From the NCBI GenBank assembly GCA_964583095.1, contig CAZOVB010000003.1, forward strand, positions 562 to 64,561: a stretch of DNA of 64,000 nucleotides, written 5' to 3'. The stretch is from an uncultured Planctomycetaceae bacterium. GTDB lineage: Bacteria; Planctomycetota; Phycisphaerae; SM23-33. The notes under the pieces are model-generated. The model was not told where the DNA came from and made no database searches. It saw only the letters and a program-made list of their open reading frames with translations. Below, piece by piece: positions 1,010 to 25,024 of this stretch (position 1 is the first letter of the stretch; each line of letters starts with the position of its first letter). Both the position numbers and the translations under genes were made by a program.

Positions 1010-1579
1010 GTGAAACACACAATCCTACCGGCACTTGTTCTGGCAGCCCTTACGCTCGGACCGGGATGCAAACAGGACGAAGAACCTCTGTCCTTCAAGG
1101 CCGAGAACGTCGATCGCATCCTGCTCTACGACGTGCGGACCTCCGGACAGGGAGGCTACAACGTCTACGTCGACAAACAGGGACAGGCCTGGGTTCAGGT
1201 GGTCGAGCCGGCAGCGGCCTATTTCGGTGAGAAGCAGTACAGCTTCCGGATCAGCGATGAGCAGCTGGCCGCCCTGATGAACGCGGCCAGTGATCCCGAA
1301 CTGGCCAAGCTCGCCCAGCGCAGGAGCCCTGCCAGGCCCGACGGGAGTACCTCGACGATCGAAATCGCCCTGGATACAGGCGAGACGATCACGATCAGGC
1401 GGAATCCGGAGATCGGCGAGCTTCAGCCCTTCGACGCGACCTATGAGATTCTGCGAAAGGCGGCCGAGGAATCCCCCCGGACCGACCCGATGTACGAAGG
1501 TCGCTTCCGATGGGGTTGGAGGCCTGAAGGATTCGAGATCCCGGCCACTCAGCCGGCCCTGCCGCGTGAGCGACAGTAG
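1010..1579 (+). CDS. hypothetical lipoprotein
   Basis: The N-terminus MKHTILPALVLAALTLGPGC reads as a signal peptide with a lipobox-like Cys. No recognisable catalytic motif is present. Confidence 0.5.
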   Translation: MKHTILPALVLAALTLGPGCKQDEEPLSFKAENVDRILLYDVRTSGQGGYNVYVDKQGQAWVQVVEPAAAYFGEKQYSFRISDEQLAALMNAASDPELAKLAQRRSPARPDGSTSTIEIALDTGETITIRRNPEIGELQPFDATYEILRKAAEESPRTDPMYEGRFRWGWRPEGFEIPATQPALPRERQ

Positions 1580-1598
1580 TCCCGGAACTACCGATCAG

Positions 1599-2102
1599 AC
1601 CCACCGGGCACGCGCTGCCCGGTGGGTTCTGACGGCCCTGCTGGGGGCGATCCTGCTCAATGCTCCCGTCTATCTCTGGACGGTGCATCGACAGGGCGGC
1701 GTGGCCCTGGGGACCCTCCCAGAGCCAGGCCGCTATTACCTGGTCGAAAACCGCCTGATCCGGATGCAGCCCCAACCGGACCCCAAAGACCCAAAACACG
1801 GCACGAGCGTCGACAGGCAGACCTGGATCTTCAACCTGTACTACACCCTGGCCTCGCGGCTCTCTTTCGTTCTGGGCCTCGGGTGTTTCCTGGTGCTCCT
1901 GGCCGAGGCGCTCTATCGTCAGTACTTCCGCAGGGGGCGGGAAGGGGCCACCGGACAACCGGGCGATTCAGCCAAGTGGTTCGCCCTGAGCGTCCTGGTC
2001 TCCTTCTTCGCCCTGGTCGCCTGGGAAGTCGGAGGACAGGCCGTCAAAGACTTCCATATGTCCCATCTGCGCTACAGCCTGATTCAAAAAGGAAACCTCT
2101 AG
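1599..2102 (+). CDS. hypothetical small membrane protein; the start codon is unresolved
   Basis: Hydrophobic helices RWVLTALLGAILLNAPVYLW and LASRLSFVLGLGCFLVLLAEALY, with a further segment FALSVLVSFFALVAW. No in-frame ATG/GTG/TTG lies between the upstream stop at 1579 and the GTG at 1683. Confidence 0.35.
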   Translation, partial: THRARAARWVLTALLGAILLNAPVYLWTVHRQGGVALGTLPEPGRYYLVENRLIRMQPQPDPKDPKHGTSVDRQTWIFNLYYTLASRLSFVLGLGCFLVLLAEALYRQYFRRGREGATGQPGDSAKWFALSVLVSFFALVAWEVGGQAVKDFHMSHLRYSLIQKGNL

Positions 2103-2103
2103 C

Positions 2104-3594
2104 ATGCCTTCCATACAAGAAATCGAATCCGCCACCGATCTATGCCTCTACCCCAAGAGCTTTTACCAGACCCAGGGACTGACCCTCTTCCTGGCCAGAC
2201 GGGGATCGGAAACCTTCGTCGGCTTCCTGGGCAAAAGCCCCCTGCCCGGCGAGTCGGCCGGGAGCGTCGCCGGCCAGGATGTCACGCTCTGCCACCCCCG
2301 CACAGAACTGGCCGAGAAGATCCGCGAGCTTCTGCCCTGGACAGCCCCCCGCTGCATGGGACTGGCCACCAGCGCCGGGCTCGGAGACCGCCTGGGCCTG
2401 GCCACGCCGGGCCATATCCGCGCGATCCGCAGCACCTCCGTCAAGCCCTACCTGGCCCAGCAGTCCATCCGCGAGATGACCCGCACCTCCCGAACGCCCC
2501 AGCAGGTCATGGACTGCGCGACCTTCGGCGTCCTGCAGGAAGGGTTCGAAGAGGGCTTCGGCTCCGACGCCGATCACCTCCAGCAGCCCGAGGATATCGA
2601 CGCCACCGCATCTGTGGGCTTTACCATGTTCACCATCGACCCGGGACTCCACGTGGTCAACCAGGCCGACGAAGCCACCGCCCAAGAGCTGGGCAAAGCC
2701 TATTCGGCGATGGACAAAACCTTCGAGACGCTCGAAATCCGCCCCGACGAGCTCCAGGGGGCCTACGTGGACAAGACCTTCCCGCTGGAAGAGGGCAGCG
2801 AGATCCGCTTCTCGACCGAAACCTTCCTGCGGGCGGCGGTGAAGTACGGCAGCGCCGTGGCCCACACCGTCAACATGTTCCGCCACCTGAGCGACACGGC
2901 CCCGGGGCGGTTCGAACTGGAGGTCTCGGTGGATGAGACCGAGGCCCCGACCAGCCCGGCCGAGCATTACTTCTTCGCAAACGAACTCAAACGCCTCGGC
3001 GTAAAGTGGATCTCGATGGCCCCGCGTTTCGTGGGCCGATTCGAAAAAGGCGTCGACTACATCGGCGACCTCGACGCGTTCCGCAAGAGCTTTTCCCGTC
3101 ACGTGGCGGTCATGCGGACGCTGGGGCCCTACAAGATGTCCATCCACTCCGGCAGCGACAAGTTCAGCATCTATCCGATCGTGGTCGAAGAAGCCGGCGG
3201 ACTGGTGCATCTCAAGACCGCCGGCACGAGCTATCTCGAAGCCCTTCGGGCCATTGCGAAAATTCAGCCCGAGCTCTACCGGGAGATCCTGGATTTCGCC
3301 CGCGACCGCTACGAGACCGACAAGGCGACGTATCACGTCTCGGCCGACGTCTCGAAAGTTCCGCCCGCCTCGGATCTTGGCGACGAGCAGTTGCCCGCCC
3401 TGCTGGATGATTTCGATGCCCGCCAGGTCTTCCACGTGACGTTCGGCTCGGTTCTGACCGCCGGGCAGGGCGAGCAATTTCGCCCCCGGATCTACGAGGC
3501 ACTGGAATCCCATCAGCAGCAGCATTACGATTTCCTCCAAAAGCATCTGGGTCGCCATGTAGACCCTCTCGCCTCGGGCACCAGCCCGGGCTGA
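2104..3594 (+). CDS. probable tagaturonate/fructuronate epimerase-like protein (UxaE family), a sugar-acid TIM-barrel enzyme
   Basis: A 496-aa ORF with clean codon usage, followed by an SDR gene. Motifs such as HLKTAGTSYLEALRAI and SIHSGSDKFSIYP resemble UxaE-type epimerases. This is from memory and needs an HMM check. Confidence 0.35.
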   Translation: MPSIQEIESATDLCLYPKSFYQTQGLTLFLARRGSETFVGFLGKSPLPGESAGSVAGQDVTLCHPRTELAEKIRELLPWTAPRCMGLATSAGLGDRLGLATPGHIRAIRSTSVKPYLAQQSIREMTRTSRTPQQVMDCATFGVLQEGFEEGFGSDADHLQQPEDIDATASVGFTMFTIDPGLHVVNQADEATAQELGKAYSAMDKTFETLEIRPDELQGAYVDKTFPLEEGSEIRFSTETFLRAAVKYGSAVAHTVNMFRHLSDTAPGRFELEVSVDETEAPTSPAEHYFFANELKRLGVKWISMAPRFVGRFEKGVDYIGDLDAFRKSFSRHVAVMRTLGPYKMSIHSGSDKFSIYPIVVEEAGGLVHLKTAGTSYLEALRAIAKIQPELYREILDFARDRYETDKATYHVSADVSKVPPASDLGDEQLPALLDDFDARQVFHVTFGSVLTAGQGEQFRPRIYEALESHQQQHYDFLQKHLGRHVDPLASGTSPG

Positions 3595-4528: not shown

Positions 4529-5680
4529 ATGAGAAGATATCGCCCCCCGCGGAACAAACCCGATCGCTCCGAAGCTGCTTTTCCCGGCGTCCTGCTGCGC
4601 CTGGCAGCGATGCTGTTCGTCTCCGGGCTCGCACTGGCTGGCTGCAACTCGTCAGCTACACTGGGAAAGATCACCCAGCCGGGTCCGTCGCCGGTCCAGA
4701 CCAACAGCGACCTGCCAGACTGGCACCGCAGCGAACTTCTGTACCTCTCGGCCGACGGGGCGGAAAGAGTATACGTGCAGATGGACTGCGTGGCGGGCGC
4801 CTGTCCCACACGCGCCGAACGCGACGCCATGGAGACCTTCCTGCGAAGACATCTGCCCGTCGAGAAGCGGATCCTCTTCGACCACAAACCGGCCATCGAC
4901 CGCCGCATGGCCACCGGACGCGACGAGATCCAATTGGCCCTGCACCGGATGAAGATGCCCTCTCATCTGGATGACGGGAAGACCGCGTACATCTATCTCC
5001 TGTTCTACGATTCGGCCCTTACAGGCGATCAGAGCATCGAGGCCGACCCGCCCCGGCGCCCCTACGTGCGGGTGGATTATCCCAGCGCGGTGTTCGTGGA
5101 CATGGCCTACTGGACCCAGCGGAACCGCGCGGTGCTGGCTTCTGCCCTGAAGCACGAGCTGGGTCACGTCCTGGGGCTGACCAAGAACGACGACCACGGC
5201 GACGGTTCGCACTGCAAGCACCCGCTGTGCATCTCGTATCCCTATCTGCGGGTGCCCGAGGAGGGCAAGCGGCCCATCCAGCAGGGACTCTGCCGAGACT
5301 GCCTGGCCGACCTGCAAGACTACCGCAATCGCCCCGCCCCGCCGGAGCTTTCCTTCCAAGGCCCCGTCCTGGTCCGCAAAGCCCGCGGGTACCGCGTGGC
5401 CTCCCTGCCCGGATATACGCGAATGCTCATCGATGCCGACAAATCCCAGCCCGATTGCCGCGAGGTGGCCATCGAGGCACGCCGGTTCGCCGCGACCCGG
5501 TCCGGCCTGGCCGACAAGTGTCACTGCTCCCTGGATACCGGCAAGCTTTCCCTGCGCGACGAAAACCAGAAGCAGAAGATGCTCTGGGCCCTGCTGGAAG
5601 CACGACGCGACCCCGACGCCACCATCGCCGACCTGGCCCGAAAGCTCTACAGCAAGCTGCTCCAAGCCTCGGAGAGATAG
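4529..5680 (+). CDS. putative Zn-metallopeptidase lipoprotein, archaemetzincin-like (M54-like)
   Basis: Lipoprotein signal ...LFVSGLALAGC. The motif HELGHVLGL...CKHPLC...CRDC fits the pattern HExxHxxG...Cx4C...CxxC. Confidence 0.45.
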   Translation: MRRYRPPRNKPDRSEAAFPGVLLRLAAMLFVSGLALAGCNSSATLGKITQPGPSPVQTNSDLPDWHRSELLYLSADGAERVYVQMDCVAGACPTRAERDAMETFLRRHLPVEKRILFDHKPAIDRRMATGRDEIQLALHRMKMPSHLDDGKTAYIYLLFYDSALTGDQSIEADPPRRPYVRVDYPSAVFVDMAYWTQRNRAVLASALKHELGHVLGLTKNDDHGDGSHCKHPLCISYPYLRVPEEGKRPIQQGLCRDCLADLQDYRNRPAPPELSFQGPVLVRKARGYRVASLPGYTRMLIDADKSQPDCREVAIEARRFAATRSGLADKCHCSLDTGKLSLRDENQKQKMLWALLEARRDPDATIADLARKLYSKLLQASER

Positions 5681-5746: not shown

Positions 5747-6559
5747 TCAGGCGGCGCTTCGCGACCTGCCTCTTATCGTCACGACAACCGCAGCCAGGAT
5801 CGCCAGGAGCACCACCGCCCCGGCCCCGATTATCCAGGGCCAGACGCCCCAGCGGTCTTCTGCCGGCCAGGCCCGCATGTCCGCTCGCAGGATCCCTGCG
5901 ATCCGATTGGCCTCTTCCTCGCTGAAGTTCCCTGTGATCAGACCTCTTCGCGCCAGCCGGTCTTGAACCATCGGGGCCGAGTACACCCTGCCATCCAGGA
6001 CAATCGCAAGATTCCGCTCGATGTTCTCCCCGGTCAACTCTCCAAGGAGTTCCCCGCCCTTCGAATCCAGGACGAACTCGACGGCCGGGGCCCCAAACCG
6101 ATCAAAGGTCAAACTTGCCTCGATAACGGCCCAGTTCTTTTCCGGATCTTCGGAGTGCACCATCACAAGCGAAGGTCTGTCTGCCAGGAGAACATATCCC
6201 CTGTCGCCGGGTCCCTTTGCGACAATCAACCGGGAATCGCGGAACTCCTCCATTACTCCGCGAAGGGGGAACCACCGAAACCTGCCGTGCTCCCGCGAGG
6301 CCATCTTCCCTTCCTCCTGAAGCACCCGGACAAAGCCATCCCTCTGCTGGGGACTGATCAGCGGCTCGGGTCCCAAGTCCTCGACCATCTCGGGCATCCG
6401 CGGAGCCACGCGCAACTGCAGCCCGCCTCGCTGGCCCAACTGCCGCTTGGCCTCCGGAGGCTCTCGATCCGCCTCCTGGGCCCAGCCGTGAGAGCAAAGG
6501 CACAGACCGATCAAACCGATCAGCCACAGGGCGGGATTAGCAGCAAATGCCTTCATCAA
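5747..6559 (-). CDS. exported protein with a SecD-head-like domain and a C-terminal transmembrane anchor
   Basis: Signal peptide MMKAFAANPALWLIGLIGLCLCSHGWAQ. The segment AIVLDGRVYSAPMVQDRLARRGLITGNFSEEEANRIAGILRA resembles the SecD periplasmic P1 head (…ISGNFT.EEA.DLA.LLRAGALP). A C-terminal TM helix WIIGAGAVVLLAILAAVVV is present. Confidence 0.45.
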   Translation of the reverse strand: MMKAFAANPALWLIGLIGLCLCSHGWAQEADREPPEAKRQLGQRGGLQLRVAPRMPEMVEDLGPEPLISPQQRDGFVRVLQEEGKMASREHGRFRWFPLRGVMEEFRDSRLIVAKGPGDRGYVLLADRPSLVMVHSEDPEKNWAVIEASLTFDRFGAPAVEFVLDSKGGELLGELTGENIERNLAIVLDGRVYSAPMVQDRLARRGLITGNFSEEEANRIAGILRADMRAWPAEDRWGVWPWIIGAGAVVLLAILAAVVVTIRGRSRSAA

Positions 6560-6863
6560 ACCACCTCCTGAGGGGAAAATCCTTCCCCGTCCGCTGGACG
6601 TTGAACACCCAAGCCCGAATCGGGTCCGAGCACAACCCTTTGTCGCAAATCAGTATACCACCCGGGGCCTCGTTCTCAACCCGCAGGAGAATGAAACCAG
6701 GGGGTGGCTTTTTGCAGGCGAGACGGTTTTTCTTCTCCCGTCTCATCTTCCTCTCATCGACCGTTTCGTAGGATAGGGGCGTAATGGGCGAACGGTTCCC
6801 GCCCATTGACCTGGCCACACCGGCCGATTCGAAGTGGAACCAGACTGCAACTGGGAGAAAATC

Positions 6864-7541
6864 ATGAAGGCAAAATCGAAACTGGCATTGATTCTGGCAC
6901 TCACAGCCATCCTGGGGCTCTCCGGGGCCCTGATGGCCGATGACGAAGACGACCGGACGGAAGGACCCAGAAGGCGCTACCCCGGCTGGCAGCAAGGCCG
7001 CCAGGGCCAGCAGCAGCGCTCCGGTGAGCGCGGGCCCGGAATGCGACGCGACCGTGAGCGGGACGATGACGATCAGCGCGACGGCGACCGCCGCCAGGGC
7101 CCCCGGATGCGAAGACCCGGCATGGGCATGGAAATGGGACGCCAGGGGACGACGATCATCGAAGTCAACGGCCAGCGCTTCCTGATCCGCATCATCCCCC
7201 TGCCCTCCCGTGAAGGCGACCAAGGCGAGCGAGGCAGAGGCCGAGGCATGCGCGACAGCGACCAAGGCCGCCGCCCCGGGCAACGTTTCCGCGACCGCGA
7301 CGATGACGAAGATGACGACCGGCGTCCGGGACGACGCTTCCGCGACCGGGACGATGACGAAGACGGCGAGGCTGTCCGCAGGCGACCTTCCCGACGTTTC
7401 CGCGACCGCGACAACGACGAGGATGAAGACGACCGCCGCCCCCGCCGCATGCGCGATGACCGCCAAGGCCGCGACGGGCCTCCCCCCTGGGCCCGGCGTG
7501 CCCATCGCCGCGACCGCGACGAGGAAGAAGAAGACGACTGA
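6864..7541 (+). CDS. secreted Arg/Asp-rich tandem-repeat protein (polyampholyte), upstream of a CusRS-like two-component system
   Basis: The RBS GGGAGA precedes the ATG at 6864. Signal peptide MKAKSKLALILALTAILGLSGALMA. Three tandem repeats of about 17-19 aa (RRPGxRFRDRDDDEDxD) follow. The gene is co-directional with the downstream response regulator and kinase. Confidence 0.6.
   Translation: MKAKSKLALILALTAILGLSGALMADDEDDRTEGPRRRYPGWQQGRQGQQQRSGERGPGMRRDRERDDDDQRDGDRRQGPRMRRPGMGMEMGRQGTTIIEVNGQRFLIRIIPLPSREGDQGERGRGRGMRDSDQGRRPGQRFRDRDDDEDDDRRPGRRFRDRDDDEDGEAVRRRPSRRFRDRDNDEDEDDRRPRRMRDDRQGRDGPPPWARRAHRRDRDEEEEDD
7269..7464 (+). repeat. tandem in-frame nucleotide repeats of about 51-57 nt (x3 or more) inside the RD-rich gene
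   Basis: cgcttccgcgaccg(c/g)gac(g/a)a(t/c)gacga(a/g)ga... recurs three times. The encoded peptide is RRFRDRDDDED each time. Confidence 0.6.
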
Positions 7542-7642
7542 GCCGCTGGACGTTATCATGGACGACCAGGTCGATTCCAATCACCGGCCGCCGGAGACAA
7601 CCGTATGTCTCCGGCGGCCTGTGCAATCTTCAGAGCCAGCCG

Positions 7643-8311
7643 ATGCGTGCACTGCTTGTGGAAGATTATGAGCCGCTTCGCCGGTCCCTCCACCAGGGGA
7701 TCCGCGAGGCGGGCTATGCCATTGACGTTGCCGCCGACGGCGAGGAAGGCTTCTGGTACGCCCGGAACAACCCCTACGACGTCATTGTCCTGGACTTGAT
7801 GCTGCCCAAACTCGACGGCCTGAGCCTTCTGCAGCAACTGCGGGATTCCGGCTCCAAGACGCCGGTGCTCATCCTCACCGCCCGCGACGCGGTGGAGGAT
7901 CGCGTCAAGGGCCTGGACACCGGGGCCGACGACTACCTCACCAAGCCCTTCGCCCTGGAAGAGCTTCTGGCCAGGATGCGGGCACTGGTCCGCCGCAAGT
8001 ACGACAAGTCCCAGACCCTCCTCCAGGTCGGATCGCTCCACCTGGATACCTCTGCCAAACGGGTACATCGCGACGGAGAGGAAATCCAGCTCACCGCCCG
8101 GGAATACTCCCTTCTGGAATACCTGGCCCGGCGGGCGGGGCAGACCGTCAGCCGAACCGAAATCTGGGACCACCTCTACGAATTCGACAGCAGTGCCACC
8201 AGCAATGTGGTCGACGTCTATATCGGCTACCTTCGACGCAAGCTGGACCCTCCCGGGCAGGGGAGCCTGATCCGCACCGTCCGGGGCCAGGGATATCGCC
8301 TGGGAGAATGA
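7643..8311 (+). CDS. OmpR-family response regulator, CusR/CopR-like
   Basis: MRALLVEDYEPLRRSL...DVIVLDLMLPKLDG...KPFALEELLARMRALVRR is a near-canonical receiver domain. A winged-helix C-terminus follows (…VYIGYLRRKLD…IRTVRGQGYRL). Confidence 0.85.
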   Translation: MRALLVEDYEPLRRSLHQGIREAGYAIDVAADGEEGFWYARNNPYDVIVLDLMLPKLDGLSLLQQLRDSGSKTPVLILTARDAVEDRVKGLDTGADDYLTKPFALEELLARMRALVRRKYDKSQTLLQVGSLHLDTSAKRVHRDGEEIQLTAREYSLLEYLARRAGQTVSRTEIWDHLYEFDSSATSNVVDVYIGYLRRKLDPPGQGSLIRTVRGQGYRLGE

Positions 8312-8312
8312 A

Positions 8313-10067
8313 GTGACGAGCCTTCGAAGACGACTGATCCTGGGTATCCTCACATCCACCGCCCTGCTGCTGGTGGCGACCGGGGTGGCCATCTACCTGC
8401 TCCAGAGGCGGGCCCTGCTGGGCGCCTTCGATCAGGCCCTGCTGGCCAAGTCGCGGGCGCTGCGCTCGGCCCTGCGGATCGACCGGGAGACGGGCCTGGT
8501 AGCCCTGGAACCGACCGGCCGGCGTCGCATGGACTTCCGCTTCCCCTGGCGGCGAGACCCCCGCGACGGGGATGGCTTGCGAAGATTCCAGCACCGCGCC
8601 GATAACGACCGGGACGAAGACGGCGATCGGCCCGGTGAGGACTTTTTCCGACGCTTTCGAGGTCCGGACGACGACGAGGAAGACGACGAGGACGAGAACG
8701 AACCGGAAGACGCCCACAGCGATGAACGCCGCCGCGAGCGACCCGGAGACCGCCAGGAGCCCTTGCGTATGAGGCCCGGGCAGGGAGATCGATCGGAACG
8801 GGAAGATTCTCCCAGGCCCCAGGAAGAGGAAAACCCCCTCGATCTGCCCGACTGGTTCCGCGTCCAGACGATGGCCGGGACCGTCCTGCTCCAGTCCGAT
8901 TCCCCCGATCCGGGCTCCCTGCCGGCAGGGGCGCCGGAGAACGAAGAGCCGACCATCGTGGAAACAACCCTCGGGGGCCAAACGCCGGCCCGCATGGCCC
9001 TGCTGCGATTCGAACTGCGATACCCGGGCCCCCCCAACCGCAGGCCTCCCCCGATTCAAGGTGTGCTGATGGCCGCGGAGGACACCCTCGCCCTCCAGAA
9101 CCAGTTGTCAGCCACCGGGTGGATCCTCCTGCTGAGCATCTGCGCCGCCCTGCTTCTGGCCGGCCTGGTCGCCTGGGGTGTCTCAGCCGCTTCACTCAAA
9201 CCCGTGGGCGACATGGCCGAGAGGATCGGAGACATGCGGGAGGACCGGCTCGATGAGCGGCTGGACAGCGACTCCCTGCCCGTCGAACTCCAGCCCGTGG
9301 CCCGGCGGCTCAATGACCTGCTCGCCCGCGTGGGGGCCGCTTTCCGACGCGAACGCGGTTTCACCGCGGATGTCGCCCACGAATTACGAACCCCCCTGGC
9401 CGGGCTCACCACGGCTACCGAGGTCGCGCTGGGACAGGATCGCCCCGCCGGGGACTACCGCCAGGCCCTGACGGAGAACCTCCAGTTGACCCGCCGGATG
9501 CAGCAGCTTGTCGAGAAACTCCTCATGCTCGCGCGCCTCGATGCCGGCCAGTGGCAACACCAGGCCCAGACGGTCTCGCTGCGCCGCCAGACACTGCGAA
9601 GCTGGCAGGCGTTTGTCGATGCGGCCCAGGCGAAGGATCTGACCTTCACCGAGGCCGTACCCCCCGACCTGCACCTCCAGTGCGACGAGCGACTCCTGGG
9701 GGTCATCCTCTCCAACCTCCTGGCCAACGCCGTCCAGTACACCCCCCCCGGCGGGAAGATACACGCCCAGGCCGGCCAGGAGTCCGGCACGATCGGCTGG
9801 TCGCTGACCAACACCGTTGGGACCCCTCTTACCCCCGAGCAGCTCCAGGCGATGTTCGAGCGATTCTGGCGGGCCGACGTCGCCCGCTCAGCCACCGGCA
9901 TGCACTGCGGGCTGGGCCTCTCGCTGGTCCAGCGGTGCGTGGAGATCCTGGGTGCAACGGTCCGGGCGGAGATGCCCGAGCCCGATTCCCTGCGCATCAG
10001 CGTCACCCTTCCCCCCCAGCCGCCTTCCCGGGCCGACGGATGCCGCGACGATCATTCCGCGCGGTAG
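8313..10067 (+). CDS. sensor histidine kinase (CusS-like) with an unusually long, low-complexity periplasmic loop
   Basis: A GTG start overlaps the response-regulator stop. TM1 is LILGILTSTALLLVATGVAIYLL. The roughly 230-aa periplasmic loop is rich in RRFQHRADNDRDEDGDRPGEDFFRRFRGPDDDEEDDEDE. TM2, a HAMP domain, the H-box HELRTPLAGL and the N/G boxes of the HATPase domain follow. Confidence 0.8.
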   Translation: MTSLRRRLILGILTSTALLLVATGVAIYLLQRRALLGAFDQALLAKSRALRSALRIDRETGLVALEPTGRRRMDFRFPWRRDPRDGDGLRRFQHRADNDRDEDGDRPGEDFFRRFRGPDDDEEDDEDENEPEDAHSDERRRERPGDRQEPLRMRPGQGDRSEREDSPRPQEEENPLDLPDWFRVQTMAGTVLLQSDSPDPGSLPAGAPENEEPTIVETTLGGQTPARMALLRFELRYPGPPNRRPPPIQGVLMAAEDTLALQNQLSATGWILLLSICAALLLAGLVAWGVSAASLKPVGDMAERIGDMREDRLDERLDSDSLPVELQPVARRLNDLLARVGAAFRRERGFTADVAHELRTPLAGLTTATEVALGQDRPAGDYRQALTENLQLTRRMQQLVEKLLMLARLDAGQWQHQAQTVSLRRQTLRSWQAFVDAAQAKDLTFTEAVPPDLHLQCDERLLGVILSNLLANAVQYTPPGGKIHAQAGQESGTIGWSLTNTVGTPLTPEQLQAMFERFWRADVARSATGMHCGLGLSLVQRCVEILGATVRAEMPEPDSLRISVTLPPQPPSRADGCRDDHSAR

Positions 10068-21314: not shown

Positions 21315-22010
21315 ATGTTCCGACATCCAGACAACCAGGTCCGCCACCGGCCAGGGGTACGTGGACGCCCCTCGGGCTTCACCCTCTTGGAGATGCTGAT
21401 CGTAATCGCGATTCTGGGCCTGCTGGTCTCCATCGCGGTTCCGGCCCTTCTGGCCGTCCGGGAGCGTGCGAAGATCTCCGTCTCGCAGCAGCGCATCGAC
21501 AGCATCGCCGCCGGCGTCGAGCAGTACCACAGCGAACACGGCGATTACCCGCCCGAAAGCATCGACGGTCTCAACAGCGCCCGGACGCTCTGCCTGTACA
21601 TGACCGGCTGGGCCAAAGACCGGAACCACGACGGACAGGCGGCAACCGGGGCATTGGACTTTCACGAAGACGACGGCAACGATGGCTTGGGCTGGCGCAG
21701 GCCCGACTCCCCCCGTGGACGCGTCTACGGACCCTACAAGGGCCTCGACGACGCCCCCCGATCCGACGGGAGCACGCCCACCCTCCTGGACGAGTTCGGC
21801 AATACGATCTGGTATGCGCGTTACGACGCCGCCTCGGGCAAGATGGTAATCAAAGACGATCCCGGTCTGCCCGGCAAATACTTCCAGGATGAAGACGACA
21901 AGTATTACCGGAAGGACTTCGGGGTCTTCTCTGCCGGGCCCGACGGCGACTTCCAGCGATATGCCTCCGACAGCGGATCCGACGACCTGAGCAACTTCTT
22001 ACCCCAGTGA
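21315..22010 (+). CDS. GspG-like pseudopilin, paralog 3
   Basis: SGFTLLEMLIVIAILGLLVSIAVPAL, and a C-terminus FSAGPDGDF...SDDLSNF. Confidence 0.75.
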   Translation: MFRHPDNQVRHRPGVRGRPSGFTLLEMLIVIAILGLLVSIAVPALLAVRERAKISVSQQRIDSIAAGVEQYHSEHGDYPPESIDGLNSARTLCLYMTGWAKDRNHDGQAATGALDFHEDDGNDGLGWRRPDSPRGRVYGPYKGLDDAPRSDGSTPTLLDEFGNTIWYARYDAASGKMVIKDDPGLPGKYFQDEDDKYYRKDFGVFSAGPDGDFQRYASDSGSDDLSNFLPQ

Positions 22011-22525
22011 GCGAATCGATGGCGAGCAAACCCAACAAGACATTCCGAGCCCGGCGCGGCTTTACCCTCATCGAGCTGCTGGTGGTCATGGTGATCCTGG
22101 CGATCATCATCGCCCTGGCCGTGGCGATCGGAGGCTACATCAACGAGGAATCCTCCCGAAAACGGACACAGACGGCCCAGGAGATCCTGAAGACGGCCGT
22201 GGACATGTATGAAAAGGCCTACGACGGCCGGGCCCCCAGCGATGAGTGGGATTCCTCCTGGTCGGTGACCAAGCCCGGCGACGAAGCCGAGGCCACCACC
22301 GTTGCGCTGCTCCAGAGGCTCAAGGAAGTGCCCAAGAGCTGGAAGATCGTGGAGAAACTCGAAGAGGAGATCTTCGAAGACGCCCAGACCCCCCTGACCG
22401 ACGGCTTCGGCTACCCGATGAAGTACGTCGACGACGGCGGACGGGGCAAGGCGCCGGTACTGATCTCCACGGGGCCCGATGGGAAATTCGGTACAGAAGA
22501 CGACATTCGATCGGACAAACAATGA
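22007..22525 (+). CDS. GspG-like major pseudopilin, paralog 4
   Basis: RGFTLIELLVVMVILAIIIALAV, and a C-terminus GYPMKYVDDG...VLISTGPDGKFGTEDDIRSDK, typical of GspG. The start overlaps the previous stop by 4 nt. Confidence 0.8.
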   Translation: MSESMASKPNKTFRARRGFTLIELLVVMVILAIIIALAVAIGGYINEESSRKRTQTAQEILKTAVDMYEKAYDGRAPSDEWDSSWSVTKPGDEAEATTVALLQRLKEVPKSWKIVEKLEEEIFEDAQTPLTDGFGYPMKYVDDGGRGKAPVLISTGPDGKFGTEDDIRSDKQ

Positions 22526-23271
22526 CAAGCCTGAAAACAACCCGGATGCACCGCAAGAGCAACCTTGGCTTCACGCTGATCGAGATCCTCGTGGTTCTCG
22601 GCGTCATTGCGATCCTCGTCGGGATCACCCTGCCGGGAATCATCGATATCTTCAGTTCCGGATCCGAAGGCCAGGCCTACAGCGTCACCAACTCGCTGCT
22701 TCGCACGGCCCGGGCCTATGCGATCGAGAACAGCGTCTACACGGCCGTGCACTTCCAGCCCGCCGACCGCGACCTGGAGGAATTCAGCGACCGCTGGTCC
22801 ACGTTCGCCTCGATCATGGCCTGGAACGAGGAAGACGGCTACTTCCAGATGCCCGCGGGGTTCGAGCCGGTGGCCATTCCCGGCGGCATGGCCGTCGGAG
22901 CCGTCGACGACCGCTTCTTCAATTCCGACGGCTCGATCAAGAACATCACCCAGCCCGAAAAGCTCGTCACCGCGACGGTGATCTTCTCCCCGGAGGGCAA
23001 GGTCGTCCGCTGGGCGCCGACCTCCAACGGCCACGCGAAATTCGACCTCGCCGACGGCGCCCTGTTCGACAAGGACGATGACCTGCGGATCTGGGACAAC
23101 GACAACAGCACCTGGAATATGCATACCCTCGGTGTTACCGCGGTGACATTCTTCCCCCTCCAGGAGTACATGAGCCTTACCAACACATCATCGCGAACGT
23201 ACTTCCTCCAGGACAAGGCCGCCTTTACCGGAATCAACCTCTACACCGGACAACTGTTCCCAAGGAAGTGA
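22522..23271 (+). CDS. minor pseudopilin (prepilin-type N-terminal domain)
   Basis: The ATG sits at 22522 within ATGA, overlapping the GspG stop. The N-terminus is ...LGFTLIEILVVLGVIAILVGITLPGII. Confidence 0.65.
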   Translation: MTSLKTTRMHRKSNLGFTLIEILVVLGVIAILVGITLPGIIDIFSSGSEGQAYSVTNSLLRTARAYAIENSVYTAVHFQPADRDLEEFSDRWSTFASIMAWNEEDGYFQMPAGFEPVAIPGGMAVGAVDDRFFNSDGSIKNITQPEKLVTATVIFSPEGKVVRWAPTSNGHAKFDLADGALFDKDDDLRIWDNDNSTWNMHTLGVTAVTFFPLQEYMSLTNTSSRTYFLQDKAAFTGINLYTGQLFPRK

Positions 23272-23276
23272 TTCAT

Positions 23277-24107
23277 ATGCAAACTCCATTTGAACATCAC
23301 GTTACACCCGACCGGCGGGGCTTTACGCTGGTGGAAACGATGTTTGCCATCGTGATCATGGGCATTGCACTGACCATGGTAGCCGGCGTGGTCCCGGTCG
23401 GCATCGAGCTGAGCCGGTCCAGCGTGGGCGCGGTGGAATCCAAGGTCGGCTCCCGCAACGCTGTGACCTTCATTCGGTCCATGCTCACCCGCCGGCACAT
23501 GCTTGACCAGGGGGTGACGCGGCAGTTCGTGGAAATCGACGTCGACTCGCTGTTGACCACAGACGTCTATATCGATGATCCCGGCGACTACGAAACCACC
23601 AACCTGACACACCCGCTTGCCCGCAAGTCCGACGATGACCTGGTCGAGGACGAACGAAAGGGCTTCAGACTCCTGGCCCGGAGGATGGATTCCGAGCCGG
23701 ACCCCAGCCTCGCCCGCAACGACTACCTCCTGGCCATCTTCTACTACCTGGAGAACGAGATCTTCGAAGAAGATCCGGACGAAGACGGCAATGAGATGGC
23801 CCTGAAACCCATCGGCATCGACTCGGTCGACCACGATGACCGGCAAGTGAGCATCTCCAACCAGTCGCAGGCCAAGTTCTTCCAGCCGGGCAGTATCGTA
23901 CTTGGTCAGAACGGCTCCTGGGCGCGGATCGAAAGCATCGACGGCAAGACGATTCAGCTCGACCGCGCCCTGAGCGGCTCCCAGTCGGCCATCGAGCCTC
24001 TCTGGACCATCTACGAACACGACGGGGACGCCGACGCCCCCCTGCCGGTCATGAGCCCGGGACTGGGGCTTCTCACCGTCCGCACCGCATTGAGGAACGC
24101 ACCATGA
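23277..24107 (+). CDS. minor pseudopilin (prepilin-type N-terminal domain)
   Basis: The RBS AGGAAG lies 9 nt upstream of the ATG at 23277. The N-terminus is RRGFTLVETMFAIVIMGIALTMVAGVV. Confidence 0.6.
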   Translation: MQTPFEHHVTPDRRGFTLVETMFAIVIMGIALTMVAGVVPVGIELSRSSVGAVESKVGSRNAVTFIRSMLTRRHMLDQGVTRQFVEIDVDSLLTTDVYIDDPGDYETTNLTHPLARKSDDDLVEDERKGFRLLARRMDSEPDPSLARNDYLLAIFYYLENEIFEEDPDEDGNEMALKPIGIDSVDHDDRQVSISNQSQAKFFQPGSIVLGQNGSWARIESIDGKTIQLDRALSGSQSAIEPLWTIYEHDGDADAPLPVMSPGLGLLTVRTALRNAP

Positions 24108-25024
24108 GACACACACCCACAATGAGAACGCGACGGGGCATGACGCTGATCGAACTGCTTGTCACCGTGGTGGTTATCGCCGCGATCCTCTACGTGTTCA
24201 ACATGGTCCTCACCAGCAGTCAGCAGTTCGTGACGACCACCCAGAGCCGCTCGCGTGCCAACAGTGCGGCCGAGGCCATCGCGAGGACGATCCGCTCGGA
24301 CCTGGAACGGATATCGCGCCAGGGATTCCTGTTGATCTGGCACAAACCCTCTGAAGGCTATCGAATGTGCTTCACCCAGGCCGGCAGGTTCAACTCCACC
24401 CTGGCAGATAAAGGCACCCCCGCCTACGCGACGCGCGCAACCGGCGCGGTGGTCGCCTACGGCATGGCCGACAACACGCATCCGGCCTATCCCGGAAAGG
24501 TCCTGCTCCGCAAGCAGCTTCTGCTGGTCGGAACCAGCATGTCCGATCCGCTGCCTGCCGATGCGGATGGCGGCGACCCCGACAGCGGTTCGGATCCGTT
24601 TTTCGGACCCACCAACCCGTCGATCAGCCCCACTCTGGGCACCATCCAGTTCACGCGGGAATCGAAGCTGCTTGACCAGATCCTGGGCGGTCCAAGTGAT
24701 GAATCCTTCATGGAGTCCGTGCCCGAATCGATCCGGGTTCCTGCAAACAACAACCTGAATGAGGTCAGGGACCTCTGGGAAGTCCTGAGCCCGGGGATCG
24801 AACTCGTCGGCGTCCGTTACGCGATGCCCGACCCGCATACAGGAAAGCCCAAGTGGCATGCGATCGACCTGAGCAAGAGCTACCAGAATTTCTGGACGCA
24901 CGAGGATCCCTCCGACTGGCCTTTGGCGCTACACCTGATATTCCGTCTTAACGATCCGGACCTGCCCGAGGAGTTGCAGAACGAATCGACGCTTTACCAC
25001 GTGGTCGCCCCGATCGGCCAGTAA
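24104..25024 (+). CDS. minor pseudopilin (prepilin-type N-terminal domain)
   Basis: RRGMTLIELLVTVVVIAAILYVFNMV. The start overlaps the upstream stop by 4 nt. Confidence 0.6.
   Translation: MRHTPTMRTRRGMTLIELLVTVVVIAAILYVFNMVLTSSQQFVTTTQSRSRANSAAEAIARTIRSDLERISRQGFLLIWHKPSEGYRMCFTQAGRFNSTLADKGTPAYATRATGAVVAYGMADNTHPAYPGKVLLRKQLLLVGTSMSDPLPADADGGDPDSGSDPFFGPTNPSISPTLGTIQFTRESKLLDQILGGPSDESFMESVPESIRVPANNNLNEVRDLWEVLSPGIELVGVRYAMPDPHTGKPKWHAIDLSKSYQNFWTHEDPSDWPLALHLIFRLNDPDLPEELQNESTLYHVVAPIGQ

Follow-up and report, generated by a model that had tools for sequence, protein, structure and literature searches.

A secreted arginine/aspartate-repeat protein encoded beside a two-component system whose sensor kinase carries a similar, predicted disordered insert

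A three-gene module occupies positions 6864-10067 of a 64,000-nucleotide (nt) stretch of contig CAZOVB010000003.1 from an uncultured Planctomycetaceae bacterium (the whole stretch is referred to here as the window). It encodes a secreted protein rich in arginine and aspartate repeats (protein A), an OmpR-family response regulator and a sensor histidine kinase, and the sensor domain of the kinase contains a 107-residue insert that resembles the repeats of protein A. We propose, with a probability of about 0.4, that this is a feedback module of the DbfQ or CpxP type in which a disordered polyampholyte stands in place of a folded accessory domain and engages the related kinase insert.

Organization of the module

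The three genes are co-directional and have the following coordinates.

6864-7541, + strand: gene A, repeat protein of 225 amino acids (open reading frame and translation), with the signal peptide encoded at 6864-6938
7643-8311, + strand: OmpR-family response regulator of 222 amino acids (Pfam Response_reg 3.7e-29, Trans_reg_C 6.9e-26)
8313-10067, + strand: sensor histidine kinase of 584 amino acids with a GTG start (Pfam HisKA, HATPase_c, weak HAMP and weak 2CSK_N)

Gene A is separated from the regulator gene by 101 nt, and a single nucleotide lies between the regulator stop codon and the kinase start. The module extends from the ATG of gene A (6864) to the final base of the kinase stop codon (10067), exactly the limits given in a first-pass annotation made from the sequence alone, and its placement of a signal-peptide repeat protein directly upstream of, and co-directional with, a two-component system is confirmed. 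The same annotation called the system CusR/CusS-like. This is apt for the cytoplasmic transmitter, for which the nearest solved cores (Foldseek) are cytoplasmic fragments of HprS and CusS (TM-score 0.74-0.86 on the target, 27-32% identity), but it does not extend to the system as a whole. The regulator scores 238.4 bits with TIGR01387, under the curated NCBIfam cut-off of 279.2, and the kinase 242.5 bits with TIGR01386 (cut-off 292.55), the match covering only residues 252-566 and model positions 146-456. The kinase sensor domain with the insert removed has no sequence relative in the PDB, the CusS-type periplasmic domain is unmatched, and no metal efflux or metal-resistance genes are seen among the annotated neighbours of the module.

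Protein A is a predicted disordered polyampholyte

The N-terminus of protein A (MKAKSKLALILALTAILGLSGALMA) is a Sec-type signal, with a hydrophobic window and an AlphaFold2 helix at residues 4-22, and a Shine-Dalgarno sequence (GGAGAA, 6854-6859) is positioned 5 nt ahead of the ATG. The mature protein begins DDEDD and contains 28% Arg, 20% Asp, 12% Gly and 8% Glu, with charges of +55/-56. There is a single His, the Met residues are in R-M-R contexts and there are no HxxM/MxxH motifs. The principal elements of the mature protein are as follows.

7149-7196, + strand: beta-hairpin TTIIEVNGQRFLIRII (residues 96-111), the single hydrophobic stretch and only predicted folded element
7269-7319, 7320-7379 and 7380-7433, + strand: three clear tandem units RRP(G/S)xRFRDRD(D/N)DED (residues 136-152, 153-172 and 173-190)
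7434-7478, + strand: degenerate fourth unit RRPRRMRDDRQGRDG, which includes RRPRRMRDD

At the DNA level the units have periods of 51 and 60 nt and are 67-75% identical, and an earlier degenerate unit (GMRRDRERDDDD) lies N-terminal of the clear ones. The protein had been described as made largely of such repeats; the repeats are present, but the clear units account for only ~55 of 200 mature residues, and the remainder is degenerate R/D/G/Q-rich sequence around the hydrophobic hairpin. A single-sequence AlphaFold2 model consists of the signal helix and the one hairpin (strands 96-101 and 104-109, predicted local distance difference test [pLDDT] ~89), with all else at low confidence, and the charge blocks are more segregated than in shuffled sequences (z 2.9). 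Protein A is thus predicted to be an R/D polyampholyte that is secreted and intrinsically disordered. It matches none of the families in Pfam or NCBIfam, no homologue is found in a word-indexed search of 5.8e9 proteins or in an exhaustive HMMER search of 1.84e9 representatives, and the exact sequence is absent from the searched protein collection.

The kinase sensor domain contains a lineage-specific insert

The kinase has transmembrane segments at approximately residues 7-30 (TM1) and 264-296 (TM2). An AlphaFold2 model built on 21 homologues (mean pLDDT 77) has a long N-terminal helix, strands at 54-56 and 63-65, five more strands (181-257) and then TM2. The pLDDT falls below 50 for residues 68-154 and 156-174, which separate strand 63-65 from strand 181-186, and the surrounding sensor domain is a confident helix-plus-sheet fold. 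Typical kinase relatives are ~470 amino acids long and have only 4-5 residues at this site, between 'PEF' and 'P.YFQ.W', so that the 107 residues represent a lineage-specific insert in a sensor-domain loop.

8514-8834, + strand: predicted disordered R/D/E insert, kinase residues 68-174
8580-8636, + strand: repeat-like unit RRFQHRADNDRDEDGDRPG, residues 90-108
8637-8696, + strand: repeat-like unit EDFFRRFRGPDDDEEDDEDE, residues 109-128

The insert also holds RRRMDFRF and LRMRPGQGDRSERED. The sequence quoted from the sensor loop in the first-pass annotation is indeed there, at residues 90-128 between TM1 and TM2, and both protein A and the insert are predicted to be disordered from their AlphaFold2 pLDDT values.

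Protein A and the insert resemble each other beyond composition

Protein A and the insert share a unit grammar consisting of RR-F/M-R, an acidic run and RPG, and a collinear match of 78 nt (26 amino acids, or one and a half units) connects gene A at 7356-7433 (DEDGEAVRRRPSRRFRDRDNDEDEDD) with the kinase gene at 8613-8690 (DEDGDRPGEDFFRRFRGPDDDEEDDE). A hidden Markov model (HMM) of the three clear units gives p = 0.0045 for the best hit and p = 0.0015 for the top two hits when compared with 2000 shuffles of the insert, and the kinase is its top non-self match among all six-frame open reading frames of the window. With Smith-Waterman alignment, 12 or 51 of 1000 shuffled inserts attain the real score, depending on how the insert is delimited, and this falls to 5 of 1000 with the C-terminal 66 amino acids of protein A. 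Local alignment of the DNA against codon-order shuffles gives z = 3.76 (2/500). A loose motif, R[FMWY][RQ] with five or more acidic residues among the following 12, has five occurrences in the six frames of the 64 kb, three of them in protein A and two in the insert.

Most of the similarity is due to composition, but a part is not, and the order-level signal is statistically modest. The earlier statement that more than compositional bias is involved therefore stands, with shuffled controls scoring lower by Smith-Waterman, codon-shuffle DNA and unit HMM comparisons and with a modest effect. Direct comparison of the repeat protein with the kinase loop is divided by method, being positive with the HMM (p 0.0015-0.0045) and negative with composition-adjusted BLASTP, for which nothing is significant (E 0.44).

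Orthologous loci keep the pair and its charge pattern

Only two close relatives of the kinase are found, P0002 (54% identity) and P0003 (58%), and the next are at <=44%; in a separate scan of genome contigs for close relatives, all of the matches listed have <=38% identity. The orthologues of gene A were reached only through the kinase search and not through protein A itself. The relatives' contigs share downstream genes with the window locus and the loci are therefore orthologous. In L001/L002 the C-terminus of a repeat protein (...RRMRRDDDDEREGPRG...) is encoded directly upstream of the regulator and kinase pair, with an in-frame end in L001 (...DDDEREGPRGRRMRRDDDDEREGPRGRRMREHRDEDEDD*), and the same is true in L003 (...RRFRDRDEEQED...PPPWARRDRESERDD*; in-frame end ...RPARRFRDRDEEQEDERRGRRFRDRDDDDEQEGPRRRRRPGPPPWARRDRESERDD*). 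The kinases of L001/L002 and of L003 have R/D/E(/P) inserts at the same site as the window kinase. The pairing of repeat protein and insert is thus kept wherever it can be examined, i.e. at both orthologous loci found, and the expectation that the two would co-occur in related genomes is borne out.

Every short-read assembly of the organism and its relatives (L001, L002, L003, L208 and L209) is interrupted within the repeat gene or immediately ahead of it, and the L001 contig ends in perfect 48-nt tandem units; it follows from these breaks that the public protein collections lack gene A. An attempt to recover the N-terminal halves of the orthologues through the divergent SecDF-like neighbour failed, the contigs stopping before or inside gene A.

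In the window and in L001, protein A resembles the insert of its own genome more than those of other genomes (z 2.97 and 2.81 at the protein level, versus 0.1-1.2), with own-genome DNA z values of 3.76 (window) and 3.66 (L001). For example, REHRDEDEDD in the L001 repeat protein has the counterpart REHDEDDEED in the L001 kinase. A common origin of the repeat region and the insert is plausible because of the collinear 26-amino-acid/78-nt match and this own-genome resemblance in two of the three genomes. Across all six sequences (repeat protein and insert in three genomes) the charged fraction is 0.54-0.77 and the net charge is near zero or slightly negative, RR[F/M/W] is over-represented in 6/6, and charge blocks are more segregated than in shuffles in 6/6 (z 2.0-3.7), even where the sequence has diverged. 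The conserved feature is a pattern rather than a sequence.

These comparisons bear on a reading in which nothing functional is tied to the resemblance, slippage-prone GAC/CGN-rich DNA having simply grown in both genes so that the similarity reflects a shared mutational process and composition. Consistent with this are the lack of a significant BLASTP match after composition adjustment, the rapid evolution of both regions (the kinase orthologues are 54-58% identical compared with 84% for a neighbouring protein), the recent expansion represented by the perfect 48-nt units of L001, and the composition-only resemblance seen in other lineages. We nevertheless regard such neutral growth as very unlikely. 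The reading frame, signal peptide and stop-codon position are maintained, charge segregation exceeds that of shuffles in all six sequences, the order-level similarity has p 0.0015-0.0045, such sequence is found in these two genes only within the 64 kb, and a strongly conserved regulatory block lies upstream of gene A.

The upstream position corresponds to an accessory-protein slot

In distant planctomycete relatives, and on one contig labelled Anaerolineales, a gene for a small secreted protein of the PepSY or PepSY_like type is located upstream of the regulator and kinase genes. The slot gene matches PF03413 in L007 (7e-8) and PepSY_like below the curated cut-off in L005 and L010, with a faint PepSY_like match in L205. 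Occupancy of the slot by PepSY is not universal: an arylsulfotransferase-like gene is present in L006 and L207, and MacB in L206. The arylsulfotransferase-like genes (L006 875-2914 and L207 757-2565) encode proteins of 600-680 amino acids and belong to a clade with Pro/Gly/Arg-rich kinase inserts; the L006 protein (679 amino acids) itself has a G/P/R-rich tail. Charge complementarity between PepSY tails and kinase loops in typical relatives is unsupported, as tails are acidic at 2/4 loci and loop charge varies.

Protein A was considered as a degenerate PepSY protein and this was rejected. Its hairpin is similar by eye to the last PepSY hairpin of the relatives (VIDGQEFELKIA), without statistical support: there is no Pfam match even at E <= 10, BLASTP against the L007 PepSY protein gives E 8.3, and hhalign against a profile of the relatives' PepSY repeats gives E 0.24 over 12 columns. 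The relation is retained as a positional analogy only.

The closest precedent is DbfQ of Vibrio cholerae, a PepSY protein of the periplasm, which binds to the sensor domain of DbfS via charge pairs (Kd 30 nM) and biases DbfS towards phosphatase activity; the gene order is dbfQ-dbfR-dbfS, the operon is autoregulated, and modules of PepSY proteins with two-component systems are widespread (PMC12714742). As in DbfQ-DbfR-DbfS and other such modules, e.g. PA2658/BqsRS, the gene for a small Sec-exported protein directly precedes, on the same strand, those for an OmpR-type regulator and a kinase, and just as the DbfQRS operon is autoregulated, a conserved candidate operator precedes gene A. Unlike DbfQRS, protein A is predicted to be disordered and has no detectable PepSY domain, the kinase carries an A-related disordered insert of 107 residues, and a strong hairpin separates gene A from the regulator gene. 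The first-pass annotation did not recognise the architecture as described. The three-gene order of accessory protein, response regulator and kinase is already described, as in DbfQRS; for the matched disordered pair of accessory protein and kinase, no description was found in a limited literature search.

The module is also similar to CpxP-CpxA, and to the related ZraP-ZraS and Spy, in having a periplasmic accessory protein beside its two-component system, probably with induction by the system and feedback on the kinase. It differs from CpxP, Spy and ZraP in that protein A has no LTXXQ or Metal_resist domain (no Pfam or NCBIfam match) and, in its AlphaFold2 model, is helical only in the signal peptide. 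To our knowledge, CpxP does not resemble the CpxA sensor domain. The earlier suggestion of a soluble mimic or decoy derived from the same sequence as the sensor and acting with CpxP-like logic survives in part, in that a common origin is plausible, DbfQ-DbfRS provides a precedent (PMC12714742) and PepSY genes fill the slot in relatives; the absence of the motif from the L003 insert weighs against a strict mimic.

Metal binding was the alternative offered in the first-pass annotation. In its fuller form the acidic runs of both proteins would bind the same hard cation (Ca2+, Mg2+, Fe3+ or a lanthanide) with no contact between protein A and the kinase, the insert acting as a low-affinity, PhoQ-like cation sensor and protein A, produced under the system's control, as a buffer or sponge in the periplasm, in the manner of SilE or PcoE. 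SilE and PcoE are disordered periplasmic silver/copper-binding proteins controlled by CusRS-type systems, and protein A is like them in its signal peptide, its predicted intrinsic disorder and its place beside a heavy-metal-type regulator and kinase. Unlike them, it is a net-neutral Arg/Asp polyampholyte with one His, no HxxM/MxxH motifs and no resistance genes nearby. Acidic clusters in kinase sensor domains are known to sense cations, as in the acidic patch of PhoQ and the ExxE motifs of PmrB and BqsS. The kinase described here similarly has Asp/Glu clusters in its periplasmic part and a predicted helix-plus-sheet sensor fold, although, in place of a short patch on a folded surface, it has acidic runs that alternate with Arg blocks along a long disordered insert. 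Among PepSY proteins, the acidic UipA and lanpepsy bind uranyl, Fe3+ and lanthanides and are folded and strongly acidic (LanP has an isoelectric point of 4.6; PMC9988556). These are, like protein A, small exported carboxylate-rich proteins, and they share a family with the slot proteins of the relatives, but protein A is predicted to be disordered and is neutral.

Several observations favour a common ligand. Long Asp/Glu runs are present in both proteins, each of which has one DxDxDG-like stretch (DDDEDG in protein A and DRDEDG in the kinase), the kinase is by its transmitter a member of the heavy-metal sensor subgroup, acidic PepSY proteins bind metals as noted above, and a related system (L016) has a neighbouring secreted charged-repeat protein with an EF-hand. 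Still, we think this account somewhat unlikely. Mature protein A is net neutral with 28% Arg and is a poor fit for a metal binder, being unlike high-capacity cation binders because its Arg blocks would compete with cations for the carboxylates. In addition to the single His, the lack of SilE/PcoE-type motifs and the lack of efflux or metal-resistance genes seen nearby, the DxDxDG-like stretches are not conserved in the orthologues, and the shared basic-aromatic RRF/RRM half of the unit is left unexplained by cation binding.

Putative regulatory elements flanking gene A

Gene A is preceded by a conserved non-coding block and followed by a strong hairpin, with the following coordinates.

6733-6809, + strand: conserved non-coding block (75 nt), ~97% identical in L208 (minus strand, ~1-80)
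6741-6758, + strand: perfect direct repeat TCTCATC-N4-TCTCATC with 11-bp spacing, unique in the window
6769-6774, + strand: -10-like sequence TAGGAT
6783-6807, + strand: 8-bp palindrome AATGGGCG/CGCCCATT
7586-7619, + strand: perfect 14-bp GC-rich stem-loop between gene A and the regulator gene (-48.3 kcal/mol, z -5.1)

The proteins of the orthologous genomes are 54-84% identical, and the rest of the intergenic region upstream of gene A is poorly conserved. The block is a candidate promoter and response-regulator operator, a role suggested by the 11-bp repeat spacing, which is typical of OmpR/PhoB-family sites. Hairpins of 13-14 bp with different stem sequences occupy the same place as the stem-loop in L001 (~163-208) and L003 (~239-273). 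The stem-loop of the window is not followed by a T-run and is not called by a consensus terminator scan; it is likely either a partial terminator lacking a U-tract or an mRNA-stabilising hairpin. Neither the upstream block nor the hairpin has an Rfam match, and an RNA family was rejected for both.

Charged repeats in other lineages

A metagenome scan was made for tandem FRDRD repeats; the statements that follow hold among the matches listed, which are mostly unrelated proteins. FRDRD repeats are often found in C-terminal tails, those of ribosomal protein S6 and of PNPase-like, DEAD-box helicase and RluB-like proteins (L088, L092, L094, L100, L105, L108, L141, L158, L159, L163 and others). These are cytoplasmic and RNA-associated, and the motif alone is therefore no sign of periplasmic function. 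Many small secreted FRDRD proteins are also present, some of them composed largely of (D)RFRDRD(D) (L090 112-1296, L110 9115-10290 and L118; also L098, L113, L117, L150 and L099/L106/L140/L164). In one such family the N-terminal region (…RGLGQTVSGWTQxGIRGxELAERIHWLQRMR…) and the downstream neighbours are conserved, with no two-component genes on its DNA.

At one soil metagenome locus (L139), a gene at 1108-1710 (- strand) joins N-terminal FRDRDGD repeats to a CpxP/LTXXQ/Metal_resist domain (PF13801, 2.7e-13), and an OmpR-type response regulator is encoded directly downstream of the fusion gene (210-1061, - strand). This is independent support for periplasmic R/D repeats in two-component accessory proteins.

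Secreted proteins with charged repeats are likewise encoded next to related two-component systems in L011 (Planctomycetota; 2915-3427 and 2510-2878, both - strand), with DRAEDRRDHRENVRD… and HPEAREKL repeats, and in L016 (Pontiellaceae; 2213-2920, - strand), where ERGNRGEYAQRG repeats come after an EF-hand. The sensor region of the kinase includes a charged low-complexity insert in L016 and a moderately R/E-rich segment in L011; the secreted proteins resemble these kinases no more than composition would predict.

In another explanation, protein A is not a partner of the kinase. The system would instead produce it for a role of its own in the envelope or outside the cell, as a polyampholyte that binds, for example, polyanionic polymers, surface or matrix material, or mineral, with the resemblance of the insert arising from sequence exchange between nearby repeat-prone regions. 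Secreted FRDRD proteins are widespread in soil and freshwater metagenomes, mostly without two-component genes on their generally short contigs; the hairpin 3' of gene A suggests an excess of protein A over the regulator and kinase, and the DNA-level match is consistent with recombination or gene conversion. Against an independent output, the insert and its charge patterning are kept in 3/3 orthologues, which suggests selection on the insert, and the position upstream of the regulator is the accessory-protein slot in relatives. We consider this explanation unlikely.

A possible feedback mechanism

If the module operates in feedback, the regulator would drive the promoter of gene A, and the hairpin 3' of gene A would raise the level of protein A above those of the regulator and kinase. 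Once in the periplasm, protein A may pair its basic and acidic blocks electrostatically with complementary blocks of the insert and so set the balance of kinase and phosphatase activities. The kinase could then be released by screening or competition, for which multivalent cations, ionic strength, pH, polyanions and proteolysis of protein A are candidates. The repeat region of gene A, 1.3 kb upstream, is the probable source of the insert or has probably exchanged sequence with it.

A number of observations weigh against this proposal. Binding of protein A to the kinase and its regulation are proposed from sequence rather than observed directly, and protein A has neither a PepSY nor an LTXXQ domain, so that homology with known accessory proteins is not established. 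The statistics of the resemblance are modest, and composition-adjusted BLASTP is without a significant match. Only three genomes are represented, and in two of them protein A is seen solely as its C-terminal 39 and 66 residues. In L003 the repeat protein keeps RRFRDRD while the kinase insert has lost the motif (z 0.25-1.4 between the two), so that an exact motif match is not required. Many small secreted FRDRD proteins are listed whose contigs, mostly short, for the most part have no two-component genes. Finally, a general rule that kinase inserts copy the adjacent secreted low-complexity protein was rejected, as the loci L016, L011 and L006 have z ~0.

A more far-reaching version of the feedback proposal, improbable enough to be offered as speculation, is that protein A and the insert form a matched pair of periplasmic block polyampholytes that recognise each other via complementary charge blocks and Arg-aromatic contacts, and possibly co-condense. 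Disordered association, rather than a folded pocket, would then allow the system to sense ionic strength, multivalent ions or polyanions, and recurrent sequence exchange would keep the pair matched. A description of such a sensory mechanism in bacteria was not found in a limited literature search, and an equally limited search found no paper in which a bacterial periplasmic sensor uses disordered regions for sensing or for recognising a partner.

Neighbouring genes and rejected reading frames

The neighbours of the module encode a metzincin-like lipoprotein, a SecDF-P1-head protein, a 2-hydroxyacid dehydrogenase and a TPR protein. The lipoprotein-like protein (4529-5680, + strand) contains HELGHVLG and has only weak reprolysin and archaemetzincin matches; it is syntenic with the module and 84% identical in L208. 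That it might be a protease that cuts the Arg-rich, disordered protein A is pure speculation.

An antisense open reading frame (6537-7580, - strand; 347 amino acids) spans the whole of gene A, with Val/Ala-rich repeats that result from GAC/CGC read on the opposite strand. It was rejected as coding, since the + frame has the signal peptide, the Shine-Dalgarno sequence and the conserved C-terminus; a gene call in L209 (3-191), on the strand of gene A and at its 5' end, also counts against it. GC content at third codon positions does not separate the two strands. The antisense frame is most likely an artefact that could mislead gene callers.

Farther to the right, genes in 21315-25024 (+ strand) have the prepilin-type N-terminal motifs GFTLIEILVV, GFTLVETMFA and GMTLIELLVT. 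A third charged segment at 22246-23271 was rejected as protein, being upstream read-through ahead of the true start of a prepilin-type gene.

Implications

The periplasmic proteins known to tune kinases, CpxP and DbfQ among them, are folded domains that dock on folded sensor domains. Should the resemblance described here be a by-product of repeat instability, the locus would represent an ordinary fast-evolving two-component module of an uncultured planctomycete-like lineage. If protein A and the insert do interact, the module would offer a compact operon for studying electrostatic pairing of disordered sequences in envelope signalling and the co-evolution of such pairs. The analysis further points to a broader, uncharacterised group of Arg/Asp-repeat proteins secreted by environmental bacteria; one member is fused to a CpxP-like domain.

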